A DNA stretch of 45,182 bases, from NCBI GenBank assembly GCA_030016755.1, contig JASEJC010000002.1, positions 1 to 45,182 on the forward strand. The letters run 5' to 3'. A program made the translations under genes and the position numbers. A model generated the notes under the pieces. It was not told the origin of the DNA. It ran no database searches and was given only the letters and a program-made list of their open reading frames with translations. The stretch's first letter is position 1; each line of letters starts with the position of its first letter. Of the stretch, positions 17,764 to 27,340 are shown piece by piece. The stretch is from Candidatus Hodarchaeaceae archaeon (lineage in GTDB: Archaea > Hadarchaeota > Hadarchaeia > Hadarchaeales > Hadarchaeaceae).

Positions 17764-19248
17764 CTATCCCTTGGCGACACCCATTGGTACCAATCTTGCT
17801 ACCTTTCTGGCGATTCCCGCTTTGTGAGATATTTCGCAGACCTTGTCAACGCTTTTATAGGCCTGCGGACTTTCCTCTGATATCACCGATAGCTTGGCCG
17901 CCCGCACTATAATGCCTCTCGACTCCAGCTCTCTTTTGACAACATCGCCTCGAAAACGATTGAGCGCCGCGGTGCGGCTTAGGTGGCGTCCCGCCCCGTG
18001 GGCTGTCGAGGCAAAGGTCTCCTGCATCGCCTGCTCGGTTCCCACGAGCACGTAGGAGGCGGTGCCCATGTCGCCCGGGATGAGCACGGGCTGGCCAACG
18101 CTACGATAGATTGGCGGGATATCTGGGTTCCCAGGTCCAAACGCCCGTGTGGCCCCCTTCCGGTGTACCACGACTTTCCGGTCCTCGCCATCGATGCGGT
18201 GTGTTTCAAGTTTTGCGATGTTGTGTGCGACATCATATATAATGTGGAGGTTCAAGCTCTCAGCATCGCGTCCGAAAACTTGTTCGAAGCTCTGCCTGAC
18301 CCAGTGTACGATCATCTGCCGGTTCGCCCAAGCGTAATTGGCCGCGCACGCCATCGCTGAAAAGTAGGCCTGCCCCTCCGGTGACGTGAATGGAACGTTC
18401 ACCAACTCTCGATCTGGCAACATGATTTTGTATTGGTGAACAGCTCGCTCCATCGTACGAAGGTAGTCGGAGCAGACTTGGTGGCCCAGCCCTCTGGAAC
18501 CTGTATGAATCATCACGGTGACCTGCCCTTCGTAGTCAATGCCGAATTTGCGCGCGACCTCGGGCTCGTAAATTTTGTCTACAACTTGAACCTCGAGGAA
18601 GTGATTTCCGGACCCTAGGCTGCCAAGCTGTGGGAAGCCACGGTGCTTCGCCTCCGCGCTCACTTTTTTAGCGTCCGCGCCCGCCATGCAGCCCCCCTCC
18701 TCGAGCCTGTCCAAGTCCTCGCGCCAACCGAAGCCGTTCTCGACAGCCCACCGCGCGCCATGCTCGAGCACATCGTCAAGCTGGGCGGGTGTTAGCTTAA
18801 CGTGGCCCGTGCTGCCCAAGCCGGATGGCACGTTCCTGAACAACGCCTCGACTATCTCGCGCAGCTTGGGTTCGACGTCCTTTTTTTCCATATTTGTCTG
18901 CAACAGCCGCACGCCGCAGTTGATGTCGTACCCCACCCCCCCAGGGCTTATGACGCCGGTCTCAGCGTCGGTCGCTGCGACCCCGCCGATCGGGAACCCT
19001 TAGCCCGAACATGCTCAAGCATGTATCGTATAGCCCTGATGCCCGTCGGGGAGTGTTATCGCGTACTTGTAGATGCCCTGGAGGAAAGCCACATTTGCGG
19101 TCTGCTCGAGGGTCAGGTCCCTGCGCATCTCGTTCAGCATCTCAGCGTCAGCATAAACCCTCGCAGGCACGCGCATACCACGCTTATAATCTTGTGGGAT
19201 TTCCCATCGCAGCTCGTCAATTTGCTTTATCTTGCCAGTCCACGGCAT
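17764..19248 (-). CDS. rtcB: RNA-splicing ligase RtcB, interrupted. Proposed join of exon 1 (19248..19030) and exon 2 (18999..17764) gives 484 aa.
   Basis: ORF 19015..19248 ends ...[16 protein letters not shown] then TIHA*. In the same frame, after ACSG*, the sequence continues [33 protein letters not shown] into ORF 17764..18936. That ORF carries [29 protein letters not shown] and GVAKG. Removing 19000..19029 restores the canonical PDGHQGYGFPIGG motif and a typical RtcB length. Confidence 0.85.
19000..19029 (-). other. putative bulge-helix-bulge (relaxed HBh') mini-intron in the rtcB mRNA, 30 nt
   Basis: RNA: ACGAUACAUGCUUGAGCAUGUUCGGGCUAA. Both junctions read GGCU followed by a 3-nt bulge (GGCU-AU|A and GGCU-AA|G). 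The two GGCU copies can pair with each other (2 GC plus 2 GU pairs). The interior forms CGA/UCG plus ACAUGC/GCAUGU stems around a UUGA loop. Length is a multiple of 3 and it contains TGA and TAA in frame. Confidence 0.55.
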
Positions 19249-22848: not shown

Positions 22849-23920
22849 GATAAAGCCAGAACGGGAGCACAGGCAGATAGCCTCTGCGAAGCTTACCGAG
22901 ATGGGCCGGGAAGTGGTGAAGGATATCCAAGAGGTCCGCCCGCCCAAACTGAGGATTCCATCACGAAGCACCTCCAACATCATCTACGACGAGGCAAATC
23001 GGTATTTCGTGCTCGGACCGCGGTATGGGGTACGATCTGCGGCGAGCATAAAACAGGTGAAGAAGTTCGCCCAGTTTTTGTGCACGGCTGACTTTGCGAA
23101 GAAGCTCATCGAAAGTGGGAAATTCGCGACGCTCAGGGAGATGTATTACACCGCCGAGGGTTGGGATGCTGGACCATTTTCCGACCAAGGGGAATCCGAC
23201 ATGATCATAGAGGACCTAGAGGCGACCTTTGGGCTCAAGCGCGAAAACCTAGGCCTGACTCCTGAGGAGGACGGGGCCGCGGTTTTCGGAAAGCTCATGG
23301 TCAACGAGGACGGTGTGGTGATAGATGCAACAAAAGCCGGACGCGCAGGCTACACAATCCCGCCGACCATCGATGACGTAGAATTCCTCAAGTGCAAAGC
23401 AAAACGAGTTATCGCGATAGAAACGATGGGTATGTACCATCGTTTCGTTCAGGAGCAGGCCTGGAAGAAATTTGATGCGCTTATCGTGGGTCTAAAAGGA
23501 CAGGCTGCCAGAGCGACTCGACGCTTTTTGAAGCGAGCGCATGACGAGCTTGGACTCCCTATCTACCTGTTCACAGACGGCGACCCCTTCGGCTTTCACA
23601 TCGCGATGGTGGTTATATCAGGGAGCGCAAAACTCGCATACATCAACCACGAGCTAGCGGTACCAGATGCACAATTTTTGGGCGTCACGGCGAGCGATAT
23701 AGTAGATTACAAACTGCCGACCGACAAACTGCGCGAACTCGATGTCGCGCGCCTCAAGCAGTTGATGAAGGATCCCCGCTACAACACCGAGTTTTGGCAG
23801 TCTGAGATTAAGAAGATGCTCGAGCTGGGGAAGAAGGCGGAGCAGCAGGCTTTTTCTAAATATGGCTTGAGCTACGTGGTCAAGGAGTATCTACCCGCGA
23901 AGTTAGGACTGAAAAGCTAG
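22817..23920 (+). CDS. top6A: DNA topoisomerase VI subunit A (Spo11 family)
   Basis: [10 protein letters not shown] contains the catalytic Tyr region. The Toprim region is [12 protein letters not shown]...[12 protein letters not shown]. It overlaps the top6B 3' end. Confidence 0.9.
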
Positions 23921-26391
23921 CGTTTGTATGCCCTTTTTATCTCCCGCAAAATTCGTTTCGCTGTTTCCTTTGGATTCGCAGAGTTGTAAATCGCGCTTCC
24001 GGCTATGCAGATGTCAGCACCTGCACCTGCGACATCCTTCGCGACGCCCTCCTTGATGCCACCTGCTACCGCGAGCGGGAAGCGCCCCGCGCGAGCCTTG
24101 GCCTCCGAGATGAGCTGCGTCTGCTCGTAGATACCCCGCCCCTTCAGCTGCTCGCTTATCCCGCGGTGCAGGCAGAACACCACCCGGGACTCGTGCCCCT
24201 TGAGGTCGCGGGTCAGGCCCTCAAGCATCTCGAGCGGGTCAGGGCAGTCGATTAAGTCTATGAGCACAGCCCGGTTCCATCGCGCGGCCTCGCTCACCGC
24301 CTCGAGTATCTTCGTCCGCCCACCGAGCGCCAATACCGCCGAGATGTCCGCTCCGGCTCTGAAGGCTATCCGCGCCTCGAGGTTCCCAACGTCCATAGTC
24401 TTCAAGTCTGCGACGAGCAGAGCCTTCGGGGCTACCTTCCGCAGGGCAGGTAAAAGTGAATCGACTCCATGCCGCTTGACCGAAGGTGTGCCCGCCTCGA
24501 TGATTTTAGCTCCACCGGTGTAGACCTTCTTTGCCATTGCCGCAATCGTTTGCACATCAGCGTCCATGTCGAGCGCCACCTGAAGCTGCGGGAACTCGAT
24601 TCGCTCGAGCGGGCTTGCGACTATCTCGACCCGCTTTACCCGCTTGGGCTTTCGAGATGGCGGCGGTGCCGTGGGAATCCCCTTCCTACTCCAACCTCTC
24701 TCCTTGTAATACTCGCGCAGCATGGGGTTTAGGTTTACGCCAAACTGTCGAGGGAGCGAGTCCTGCAAGGAGCTGAACCCCTCACGCACGTTGAACATCC
24801 TTTCCACCGTGTAGATCCTCGACCCGACCTCACGGAGGTGCTGACCCGTCCACTCCAGACCCGTCACCGCCGTCAACAGCCTCCCGATATCGTCGAGCTC
24901 GTAGTCGAGCGTGCCAAATAGGGCAAATCCGTGGAACTTGCATGCGATCAGCGAGTCATAGACTGCAAAGGCGTCCTGCATCCGCCGTACCAGTCCCGCC
25001 TTCCCCGCGCTGGCGCCTGGGTCGACAAATTCAGGATTGCTGAGAATTTCCGGGGCAATAGTGTAAGCTCGCAGGTGGCAGCCCCCGCGGTTCGATGTCG
25101 CGTAGGCAAGCGCAATCCCCTTCGCGCCCCGCGGGTCGTATGCCGGGAGTTCGAGACCCTTCACGTGGGCAGCAAGCGCTTTTCGGCTGGCCTTTCTCGC
25201 AACGGCGGCCAGCCCCTTTGAGAATTCAGACCTGCCACTCGCTATCTCTTGAACGAGCCGCTCCGCGTCCTTGAAATCCTTGACATCTCCGACAGCTCGA
25301 GCAAAGCCCAAGATGTTACCGACTGAGATGGTGTCGAGCCCGAATTCATCGCAGAGCTTAGAGAGCGGCAGGATCTCCCGTTCGTAATCATGGAACCCAG
25401 AGTTTGGCCCAAGCATCGCTATGCTTTCGTACTCGGGCCCTTTTCCCTCCCAATCTCCAACTTTTATCCACCGTCCGCAAGCGGTGGTGCAGGCGAAGCA
25501 TGCTGTCCTCCGGAGGAGGTAGCGCTCCTTGACGGTTTCACCTGAATAAACATCCACGTCCTCGAAGCTGAGCGGGCCACCAGAGAAATTGTCGCGGGGT
25601 AGCATTCCCGCCGCTGTGATGCGGTGCACGAGGAGCGCCGTGCCGAATCTGGCGAGGCTGCCGTCGGTTCCGGTGATGGGGTGAGTATCGATGGTTTGTC
25701 TAATTTTTTCGAGAATTTTCCTATATTCGGCTTCATGCGCGATCTTGATTTCTCCATCGCCGCGGACTACCACAGCCTTGAGCCGCTTAGACCCCATCAC
25801 TGCTCCGAGACCACACCGCCCCGCCACGCCCTCCCTTCCAGTACGAGCACCAGAGATTATGCATGCGATGTGAGCCAGATTTTCCCCGGCAGGACCTATC
25901 GTGGCGGCCCAGGAACCTTCGTGCTTCTCCACGAGCTCGCGTCGGGCATCGGAGGTGCTCATACCCCAGAGTGAACTCGCGTCCTTGATAGATACCCTGC
26001 CCCCGTCCAATAGCAGGTAAACTGGCTTGCTCGATCGCCCCTCGAAGATAATGCCGTCAAACCCGGCCCGCTTTAGGTAGGCGCCGAAGGAACCGCCCAT
26101 CTGGGAGTCCGCCACCGTGCCTGTCAGGGGTGACTTCGAGCACACCGCGGTCCTCCCAGCTCCCGGAAACGCGGTTGCGGTGAGGGGGCCCGTCATAAAG
26201 ATGAGCTTGTTCGCGGGGGTCAGGGGATCGATGCCGGGCTTGAGTTCGTCGTAGATGAGCTTGGCCGCGTAGCCCCGACCGCCTAGAAAGTTGTAAGCGA
26301 TTTTCTCGTTTATTTTTTCAACTGTAAACGAGCCTTTCGAGAGGTTCACGCGCAGGAGCTTGCACGTGTATCCGCCAAGCATGGACCCCAC
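23917..26391 (-). CDS. fusion protein: tungsten/molybdopterin aldehyde:ferredoxin oxidoreductase family (about 600 aa N-terminal) plus 3-hexulose-6-phosphate synthase (about 210 aa C-terminal)
   Basis: The N-terminal part has AOR motifs: GGRGYAAKL, the 4Fe-4S cysteines [10 protein letters not shown] plus DSLIACKF, and [10 protein letters not shown]. The C-terminal part has [34 protein letters not shown] and IAGSAIY, matching HPS of the OMP-decarboxylase suprafamily. It is one uninterrupted 824-aa ORF. Confidence 0.8.
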
Positions 26392-26412
26392 AAGCTAACT
26401 AAACCTCGCGCC

Positions 26413-26420
26413 TATAAAAT
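26413..26420 (-). promoter_or_regulatory. putative TATA box for the AOR-HPS gene (implies a leaderless or near-leaderless mRNA)
   Basis: The minus strand reads ATTTTATA, centred about 25 nt upstream of the ATG at 26389-26391. No Shine-Dalgarno sequence lies between them. Confidence 0.4.
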
Positions 26421-26488
26421 CACTTCAGAGTTGATATTGTTCAATTAAGTTAAAATTGTCCACCCACACAGGTAAACTGTTGAGTAAC

Positions 26489-27340
26489 ATGGAGAAAATA
26501 ACGGCGGCCGCCATCCGTGATATGAAGGATCGCGGCGAGCGCATCGTGATGCTGGCGACATACGACTACCTAACCGCCCGTATGATAGATGAGGCGGGGG
26601 TCGACGCGGTCTTGGTCGGGGACTCGGTAGCAAATGTCGTCCTCGGTCACAGGGACACGCTTGCCGTCTCGATGGACGAGATGATCCACCACACGAAAGC
26701 CGTTGCCCGGGGAGTGAAGCGAGCTCTCGTGGTGGGTGATATGCCCTTCATGTCGTATCAAGCCAGCGCCGATGACGCTATCCGAAACGCGGGGCGCTTC
26801 TTGAAGGAGGGACACGCGGAGGCCGTGAAAGTGGAAGGTGGCCGGAGCATGATAAAAAAAATCAATGCAATCATCGAGTCAGGCATCCCTGTGATGGGGC
26901 ACCTCGGGCTGACCCCCCAATGGGTTCATCAGTTCGGGGGTTTCAGGGTCCGCGGAAAAACCGAACCAACCGCTCGAGCGATCCTTGAGGATGCGCGGAG
27001 ACTTGAGCGCGCGGGGGTCTTCAGCCTCGTCCTCGAGTGCATCCCGTGGCAGCTGGCAAAGCTAATCACCGAAAAGGTCGGGGTTCCAACGATAGGGATT
27101 GGAGCGGGGCCCTATTGCGATGGCCAGGTGTTGGTGCTTCACGACCTCTTGGGCCTCACTGGTCCCCACGTGCCGAAATTCGTCAAGCGCTACGCCAAGC
27201 TCGACGATGCGATAACCAAGGCACTGGCAGATTTCAAGCGGGAGGTCAAGGCGGGCAAGTTCCCGACGCTCGAGCACAGCTATGACATGCCGCGCGAGGA
27301 GATGCGGAGATTGCTCAAAAGCTTCAGGCGCGGGCGATAA
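26489..27340 (+). CDS. panB: 3-methyl-2-oxobutanoate hydroxymethyltransferase (ketopantoate hydroxymethyltransferase)
   Basis: IVMLATYDYLTARMIDEAGVDAVLVGDSVANVVLGH, VVGDMPF, VKVEGG and GHLGLTPQ motifs. Start at the ATG at 26489. Confidence 0.9.
   Translation: MEKITAAAIRDMKDRGERIVMLATYDYLTARMIDEAGVDAVLVGDSVANVVLGHRDTLAVSMDEMIHHTKAVARGVKRALVVGDMPFMSYQASADDAIRNAGRFLKEGHAEAVKVEGGRSMIKKINAIIESGIPVMGHLGLTPQWVHQFGGFRVRGKTEPTARAILEDARRLERAGVFSLVLECIPWQLAKLITEKVGVPTIGIGAGPYCDGQVLVLHDLLGLTGPHVPKFVKRYAKLDDAITKALADFKREVKAGKFPTLEHSYDMPREEMRRLLKSFRRGR

Follow-up and report, generated by a model that had tools for sequence, protein, structure and literature searches.

How an archaeon that makes its pentoses by running the ribulose monophosphate (RuMP) pathway in reverse disposes of the formaldehyde set free, one molecule per pentose, is the question raised by a gene found in the 45,182-nucleotide stretch of DNA analysed here (hereafter the window), namely positions 1 to 45,182 of contig JASEJC010000002.1 of Candidatus Hodarchaeaceae archaeon (assembly GCA_030016755.1; Hadarchaeota in the GTDB lineage). 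The gene encodes, in one reading frame, a module of the aldehyde:ferredoxin oxidoreductase (AOR) family followed by an HPS (3-hexulose-6-phosphate synthase) module. The reading that is developed in the following, and that is considered the likely one, is that the protein serves pentose synthesis by the reversed RuMP pathway, the formaldehyde being predicted to be oxidized on the spot to formate, with concomitant reduction of ferredoxin.

To our knowledge, formaldehyde disposal in lineages that contain neither tetrahydromethanopterin (H4MPT) nor Fae has so far only been guessed at in papers describing metagenome-assembled genomes (MAGs), and the family of AOR-type enzymes is largely without a defined physiological role. 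If the proposed function is true, it would provide a specific answer to the former problem, and one whole AOR subfamily would gain a defined role; a single recombinant protein would suffice for a test.

The fusion gene and its integrity

The original prediction was that of a single 824-residue open reading frame without stop codon or frameshift, with no strand given. The frame lies on the minus strand and comprises 824 codons, open throughout, from GTG 26391 to the stop at 23917, and the region 24540-24700 reads straight through as anticipated. The probable start is ATG 26382, three codons inside GTG 26391, in agreement with a 100% identical database gene call of 821 residues (P0002). A TTTATA box is found at 26418-26413 of the minus strand, approximately 31 nucleotides upstream of this ATG. 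The gene and its parts are:

23917 to 26382, minus strand: AOR-HPS fusion gene, 821 residues from ATG 26382 (open reading frame list, translation, gene call P0002)
24667 to 26361, minus strand: AOR-family module, residues 11-575, with AFOR_N at 11-211 and AFOR_C at 225-575 (Pfam, PDB search, mapping on 1aor, Foldseek)
24592 to 24669, minus strand: linker, residues 575-600, basic and proline-rich, its length differing among homologues
23920 to 24591, minus strand: HPS module, residues 601-824, a (beta/alpha)8 barrel of the orotidine 5'-phosphate decarboxylase (OMPDC) suprafamily (NCBIfam, PDB, UlaD alignment, Foldseek)

Three Pfam domains are recognized, AFOR_N at residues 11-211 (261 bits), AFOR_C at 225-575 (313 bits) and OMPdecase at 601-814 (84 bits), and the motifs from which the architecture had been deduced are all present: the 10-letter cysteine motif at 298-307, ACKF at 483-486, the 16-letter linker motif at 574-589, LQVALD at 603-608, ADLKTMD at 661-667 and AVAGGI at 774-779. 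At residues 577-585 of the linker, 42% of the 110 homologues aligned are gapped. The integrity of the junction is borne out by the recurrence of the same three-domain architecture elsewhere, namely in 22 Hadarchaeota species genomes besides this one and in over 100 clusters of the database. The names given automatically to the fusion protein vary, with 'orotidine 5'-phosphate decarboxylase' and 'aldehyde ferredoxin oxidoreductase' as the extremes, and the finding also amounts to a correction of its annotation.

The HPS module

Whether the C-terminal barrel is an HPS, rather than OMPDC or KGPDC, was addressed by comparing its scores on the models of the different activities, and the identification originally made was upheld. 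On the NCBIfam model TIGR03128 the domain yields 132-136 bits, and on those for Fae-Hps and Hps-Phi 136-138 bits, as compared with 39-61 bits on the UlaD/KGPDC and 30-40 bits on the OMPDC/pyrF models. The best PDB sequence matches are true HPS (9lj9 and 3ajx, 98 bits), and Foldseek returned a TM-score of 0.92 to 3ajx. Barrels of the HPS type form obligate dimers.

The alignment with Escherichia coli UlaD places the catalytic and Mg-binding residues D608, E632, D662, K664, D667 and H742 on D11, E33, D62, K64, D67 and H136 of KGPDC. The positions that set HPS apart from KGPDC, defined through the E112D/R139V/T169A substitutions that push KGPDC towards HPS according to the titles of PDB entries 1xbx and 1xbz, read D712, I745 and A776, which is the HPS state, and the engineered KGPDC mutants 1xbx and 1xby outscore the wild type (1kv8) against this module. 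When conservation was computed over 110 full-length homologues, D608, E632, D662, K664, D667, D712, H742 and A776 were found to be invariant, with I745 being either I or V. From these residues and scores, the barrel is predicted to be an active 3-hexulose-6-phosphate synthase.

The AOR module

The N-terminal module of the protein had been described as an aldehyde or formaldehyde:ferredoxin oxidoreductase. Membership of the AOR family stands, with AFOR_N and AFOR_C well above the Pfam cut-offs (261 versus 29.8 bits and 313 versus 27 bits, respectively). Orthology with formaldehyde:ferredoxin oxidoreductase (FOR) does not: in the PDB sequence search the full-length matches were 9mqx (407 bits) and Pyrococcus furiosus 1aor (382 bits), then FOR (1b25, 291 bits) and WOR5 (142 bits), and the module belongs to a clade of its own, which is linked to HPS. 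The Foldseek TM-scores are 0.89 to both 1aor and 9mqx and 0.85 to 1b25, with identities of 38-39% to AOR proper and 34% to FOR.

The cofactor sites appear to be intact. The [4Fe-4S] ligands C298, C301, C305 and C484 align to C288, C291, C295 and C494 of P. furiosus AOR and are invariant in the 110 full-length homologues. Both pterin motifs are found (D348-E-F-G-L-D353 and D479-S-L-I-A-C484), and E322 and H439 align to the active-site residues E313 and H448 of the P. furiosus enzyme. E320, E322, G351, D353, H439 and D479 are also invariant (74-110 homologues). Both halves of the fusion thus look catalytically competent, a prediction made from their intact catalytic and cofactor residues. The metal of the AOR module would be W rather than Mo, and the electron acceptor would be ferredoxin; MoeA is present in the source genome.

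Arrangement of the two modules

The AlphaFold2 (AF2) model of all 824 residues, obtained from a 74-row alignment, is rigid (mean pLDDT 94.1, pTM 0.90), with mean pLDDT values of 86-88 for the 10-residue blocks that cover the linker. The model speaks for a fixed arrangement of the two domains rather than for two tethered bodies, and a direct hand-over of formaldehyde between the HPS and AOR sites may be envisaged on this basis. The domains were also submitted to complex prediction as separate chains with separate alignments (AOR module, 1-575; HPS module, 598-824). The domain-contact score was 0.56, the best control being at 0.00, which is weak support: of 80 solved complexes, 58 attain the mark used for calibration, 7 of them with scores at 0.60 or below; among 110 mismatched pairs the mark is attained by 2, both of which score in that lower range. 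Contacts agreed by at least 98% among runs and the pLDDT of the partners was at least 91; the result is not used as evidence either way. The Foldseek search returned no PDB chain that covers both the AOR and the HPS modules.

Metabolic setting and proposed function

The genome to which the window belongs (G000) measures 0.83 Mb in 62 contigs and is 87% complete, so that every absence reported for it is provisional. No HPS or OMPdecase-family gene other than the fusion was found in it. As the original prediction had suggested checking, a separate PHI is encoded in the same genome (TIGR03127, 200 bits against a cut-off of 160), on a contig other than that of the fusion (G000:C6:14047-14607), and RpiA is present as well. 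Transketolase, transaldolase and Fae were not found in G000, nor was Mch. With HPS, PHI and RpiA present and the former three enzymes not found, reverse RuMP is the only pentose route detected in G000, which implies the release of one formaldehyde for each pentose made.

The steps proposed are as follows. The separate PHI would convert fructose-6-phosphate to hexulose-6-phosphate, which the HPS half, working in the cleavage direction, would split into ribulose-5-phosphate and formaldehyde. Ribulose-5-phosphate would then be isomerized by RpiA to ribose-5-phosphate, apparently the sole way in which the cell obtains pentose phosphates. The AOR half, with its pterin-metal centre and [4Fe-4S] cluster, would oxidize formaldehyde to formate and pass the two electrons via the cluster to ferredoxin. 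Removal of formaldehyde would at once detoxify it, pull the unfavourable cleavage forward and recover low-potential electrons; excretion is the default guess for the fate of formate. HPS thermodynamically favours condensation, so that the reverse pathway would owe its operation to an irreversible sink, an argument also made for Fae-Hps. Formaldehyde:ferredoxin oxidoreductases of the AOR family oxidize formaldehyde in vitro, and with respect to the fusion we infer both formaldehyde as the AOR substrate and cleavage as the direction of flux.

In MAG papers, an AOR has been proposed to oxidize RuMP-derived formaldehyde, with no remark on a fusion (PMC9723716; PMC8065059). The first of them calls the AOR step an 'interconversion' of formaldehyde and formate (PMC9723716). 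The full-text literature search, whose coverage extends to few subscription journals, returned no description of an AOR-HPS fusion or of a dedicated AOR clade, and the fusion is provisionally regarded as previously undescribed.

As an observation in its own right, in G000 neither pyrE/pyrF, transketolase/transaldolase, FTHFS and Mch nor a molybdenum bis-pyranopterin guanine dinucleotide (Mo-bisPGD) enzyme was detected, yet it carries four AOR-family genes, i.e. the fusion and three further paralogues. This composition suggests a very reduced metabolism that leans on ferredoxin and aldehydes.

Distribution among archaea

In a word-indexed database search, the three domains recurred in more than 100 clusters of approximately 800-860 residues and 41-81% identity, with source labels that include Hadarchaeota, Bathyarchaeia, Nezhaarchaeota, Methanomethylicaceae, Thermoprotei and Heimdallarchaeota. 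In a scan of species genomes, the junction-spanning matches listed are from genomes with the labels Hadarchaeota, Bathyarchaeia and Hecatellales, Methanomethylicota, Nitrososphaerota, Thermoprotei and Hodarchaeota, and from a Methanomassiliicoccales MAG and a Nanohalarchaeota-labelled MAG. Clustering at 50% identity reduces the fusions to a few representatives, beyond which the AORs next in line are at most 46% identical. A longer form of approximately 990-1000 residues, in which two HPS-like stretches, one complete and one partial, follow the AOR module, was observed in G079:C121 (998-residue frame, the MAG labelled Nanohalarchaeota) and in protein P0122 (992 residues).

The phyletic survey comprised 66 Hadarchaeota species genomes. 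The fusion is conserved in 23 of them, in some cases cut by contig ends and in one case frameshifted; the latter, from a close relative (L025, G006:C14:9500-13500), loses its frame in the HPS part at approximately residue 665, through either a sequencing error or pseudogene formation. Canonical standalone HPS (206-230 bits) occurs in 11 of the 66 genomes, none of which has an HPS of the fusion type, and Fae-Hps in seven. Mch, taken as marker of the H4MPT one-carbon (C1) pathway, is present in 6 of the 7 Fae-Hps genomes and in none of the 23 with the fusion. The same division is seen within a single genus (g14), where G048 and G049 have the fusion and neither Fae nor Mch, and G050-G054 have Fae-Hps and Mch. 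PHI is found almost wherever HPS of any type occurs and is absent from the Hadarchaeota genera without HPS. Fifteen genomes outside Hadarchaeota with a junction-spanning match, whose labels include Bathyarchaeia, Methanomethylicota, Nitrososphaerota, Thermoprotei and Hodarchaeota, were also inspected: a standalone PHI above cut-off occurs in 12, no Fae was found in 14, and in several the fused HPS module surpasses the TIGR03128 cut-off (204-217 bits). The analogy with Fae-Hps that had been drawn from the window gains support from this survey. A sink of the AOR type needs no C1 carrier, which fits its occurrence in genomes that lack both Mch and Fae; by analogy, the fusion would be the carrier-independent counterpart of Fae-Hps, which uses H4MPT.

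Split pairs and phylogeny

In some Bathyarchaeia the two modules are encoded by separate genes (loci L029-L032, on four contigs from different samples). The AOR of these pairs, the nearest relative of the module among unfused AORs, has 562 residues and is 55-60% identical to the AOR module, and the HPS gene follows directly at its 3' side, at a distance of 0-1 nucleotide. The HPS is 53-54% identical to the HPS module, versus 31-36% for the canonical HPS and Fae-Hps of the same phylum. Since the split AOR and the split HPS cluster with one and the same set of fused proteins (P0061, P0063 and P0065) in their respective trees, the two parts appear to travel together, and the nested position of the pair among fused forms indicates that it probably arose by secondary fission. 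Taken together, fusion and split form are direct genomic evidence for a specific formaldehyde sink.

FastTree placed the HPS-linked AORs in one clade (Shimodaira-Hasegawa-like support 92). A quick free search with IQ-TREE broke this clade weakly, with two unlinked AORs inside it, neither of which has an HPS neighbour; the tree constrained to one clade is nevertheless better than the free quick tree by 61 log-likelihood units (p-AU 0.93). The sequence data thus point to an AOR lineage specialized for the partnership with HPS, and a single origin of the fusion is favoured, though not proven. The backbone of the HPS tree is not resolved, with canonical standalone HPS of Hadarchaeota grouping with one set of fused modules.

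A different association of AORs with sugar-phosphate genes was observed in two genomes whose only HPS is the canonical standalone form, G010 (L033, G010:C16:57500-62500) and G009 (L034, G009:C97). In both, a DapA-family aldolase, an AOR and two PHI-like SIS genes form one same-strand string; the AOR is 44% identical to the AOR module and belongs to a different clade, and the SIS genes, at 147 and 133 bits, stay below the TIGR03127 cut-off of 160.

Weighing of the proposal and of its alternatives

Several observations weigh against the function proposed. The score of the HPS module on TIGR03128 (132-136 bits) is under the equivalog cut-off of 200; with fused HPS modules of sister groups and of more distant fusions at 204-217 bits, above the cut-off, and with the long stem of the subgroup of this protein in the HPS tree, the module is read as a fast-evolving HPS and not as another enzyme. 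Since the AOR module resembles broad-specificity AOR more closely than FOR, specificity for formaldehyde is not derivable from homology. The tungstate-binding protein WtpA was not found in G000, nor was a sink for formate, neither a formate dehydrogenase-type Mo-bisPGD enzyme (PF00384) nor FTHFS being detected; the incompleteness of this genome counts in the same sense for the absences on which the proposal draws. The contrast between the fusion and Fae-Hps/Mch is a pattern, not a statistic, because related genomes are not independent and the 0 of 23 versus 6 of 7 rests on few independent events. Furthermore, one genome (G058) carries both Fae-Hps and the fusion, and seven Hadarchaeota genomes have canonical standalone HPS only, with no Fae, Mch or fusion, so that the fusion is not the sole solution in carrier-poor genomes. 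In three others (G028, G043 and G052) the fusion-type HPS stands alone, with no cognate AOR within 3 kb upstream, and the AOR part is thus dispensable in some genomes.

These standalone proteins (L021/L054 on G028:C14, L022 on G052:C4 and L023 on G043:C4) have 232-247 residues, a start of their own and 59-73% identity to the HPS module of the fusion described here. That of G028 still adjoins panB, which suggests that the AOR part was deleted in place.

That the barrel is something other than HPS (OMPDC, KGPDC or a non-catalytic domain), or that the frame is an artefact of assembly or a missed frameshift, could be argued from the TIGR03128 score of 132 and from the failure to find a separate pyrF in G000, for which the barrel might then stand in. 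However, pyrE was not found in G000 either and, with no OMP to decarboxylate, the barrel is not a stand-in for pyrF; the scores on HPS models are two to three times those on the KGPDC and OMPDC models, the three specificity positions read as in HPS, the catalytic residues are invariant and sister fusions exceed the HPS cut-off. The recurrence of the same frame in more than 100 clusters and 22 other species genomes speaks against an artefact, and this explanation, which is hardly credible, can be regarded as refuted as far as sequence goes. An alternative that leaves the HPS activity in place is that the modules are merely co-expressed, with the AOR acting on another aldehyde (of amino acid or sugar origin, or glyceraldehyde) and the fusion providing shared regulation or stability. 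It draws on the similarity of the AOR module to broad-substrate AORs, on the three further paralogues in G000, on the AOR strings of G009 and G010, which add a further kind of link between AORs of this phylum and sugar-phosphate genes, and on the occurrence of the HPS subtype without AOR. Nevertheless, it is unlikely: the same two subtypes are fused or strictly adjacent across several phyla, the split form is placed congruently in both trees, a clade of their own is the best fit for the HPS-linked AORs, the inter-domain geometry of the AF2 model is fixed rather than that of beads on a string, and formaldehyde is the sole aldehyde made by the fused HPS partner.

The protein could also work in the opposite direction, in an assimilatory or detoxifying role, with the AOR reducing formate to formaldehyde at the expense of reduced ferredoxin and HPS fixing the latter onto ribulose-5-phosphate. 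AOR-family enzymes are reversible in principle, condensation is the favoured reaction of HPS, the fusion would keep free formaldehyde low in either direction and the rigid two-domain AF2 model is neutral in this respect. The word 'interconversion' used for the AOR step in PMC9723716 is compatible with this direction. The alternative is nonetheless rather improbable: in G000, with transketolase and transaldolase not found and no other source of pentoses, ribulose-5-phosphate could not be regenerated and the cycle cannot close; no formate-producing or -importing system was seen there (no dedicated search was made), and the anticorrelation of the fusion with Fae and H4MPT fits disposal. The enzymes of ribulose-5-phosphate regeneration were looked for in G000; the fusion also occurs in larger genomes (e.g. 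a Hodarchaeota genome of 4.6 Mb). A fusion that is reversible in vivo, and provides a ferredoxin-driven entry of formate into sugars in archaea that regenerate ribulose-5-phosphate, the formaldehyde staying confined to the enzyme until it is fixed as hexulose-6-phosphate, is on the whole a quite improbable case, and unlikely for G000; we know of no search for such a one-protein 'reductive formate-RuMP' route other than by design. On balance, the oxidation of HPS-derived formaldehyde by the fused AOR is retained as the likely function.

Neighbouring genes and other features of the window

No operon context was found for the fusion gene in the window, its neighbours being topoisomerase VI A and B, which are convergent, and panB, which is divergent:

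26383 to 26455, no strand: intergenic region common to the fusion gene and the divergent panB, holding TTTATA (from sequence)
26456 to 27340, plus strand: panB, ketopantoate hydroxymethyltransferase (Pfam Pantoate_transf, 389 bits)

From tblastn searches, the divergent panB is kept in 12 further Hadarchaeota loci of at least six genera (L010, L011, L014-L016, L018-L020, L048, L050, L051 and L054) and is not found in the fusion loci of other phyla. PanB is a formaldehyde-level C1 transferase, and a coupling by which it would be fed with formaldehyde from HPS was considered and rejected: the synteny is limited to Hadarchaeota, and SHMT, which supplies the normal methylene donor, is encoded in 64 of the 66 genomes, G000 included, so that PanB need not depend on free formaldehyde. 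Elsewhere in the window, at 17764-18936, a Pfam RtcB match spans profile positions 46-426 only, consistent with a split gene.

Comparison with known systems

The closest functional parallel is Fae-Hps (NF009833/PRK13307) of methanogens and other H4MPT users, in which HPS is likewise fused to an enzyme that removes the formaldehyde of the reverse RuMP pathway, as described in PMC9723798. HPS is C-terminal in both fusions, and the HPS module matches the Fae-Hps model at 136 bits. The partner differs, being here an AOR-family redox enzyme of approximately 575 residues with metal cofactors instead of Fae, and so would the product, formate and reduced ferredoxin in place of methylene-H4MPT, with no need for a pterin C1 carrier. 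The genomic setting also differs, as evident from Mch (6 of 7 versus 0 of 23). Hps-Phi of Thermococcales (NF041755; PDB 9lj9, the best PDB match of the HPS module at 98 bits) is also an archaeal HPS fusion for reverse RuMP. There, however, HPS is joined to the preceding enzyme of the pathway and not to a formaldehyde sink; in G000 PHI is a separate protein.

With P. furiosus AOR and FOR (1AOR and 1B25), the AOR module shares the three-domain fold (TM-score 0.89 and 0.85, identity 38% and 34%, respectively), and with AOR the four cluster cysteines, the pterin motifs and the equivalents of E313 and H448. The P. furiosus enzymes are standalone, whereas the module described here is approximately 30-40 residues shorter, belongs to its own HPS-linked clade and carries the HPS barrel. 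The split pair of Bathyarchaeia (L029-L032) has the same AOR and HPS subtypes in the same order, and differs in consisting of two genes with a stop codon between them. The fusion is a third kind of HPS fusion, after Fae-Hps and Hps-Phi, and its partner is a redox enzyme. By placing a site that makes or uses formaldehyde next to a low-potential redox site, it offers a natural scaffold of relevance to synthetic one-carbon assimilation.

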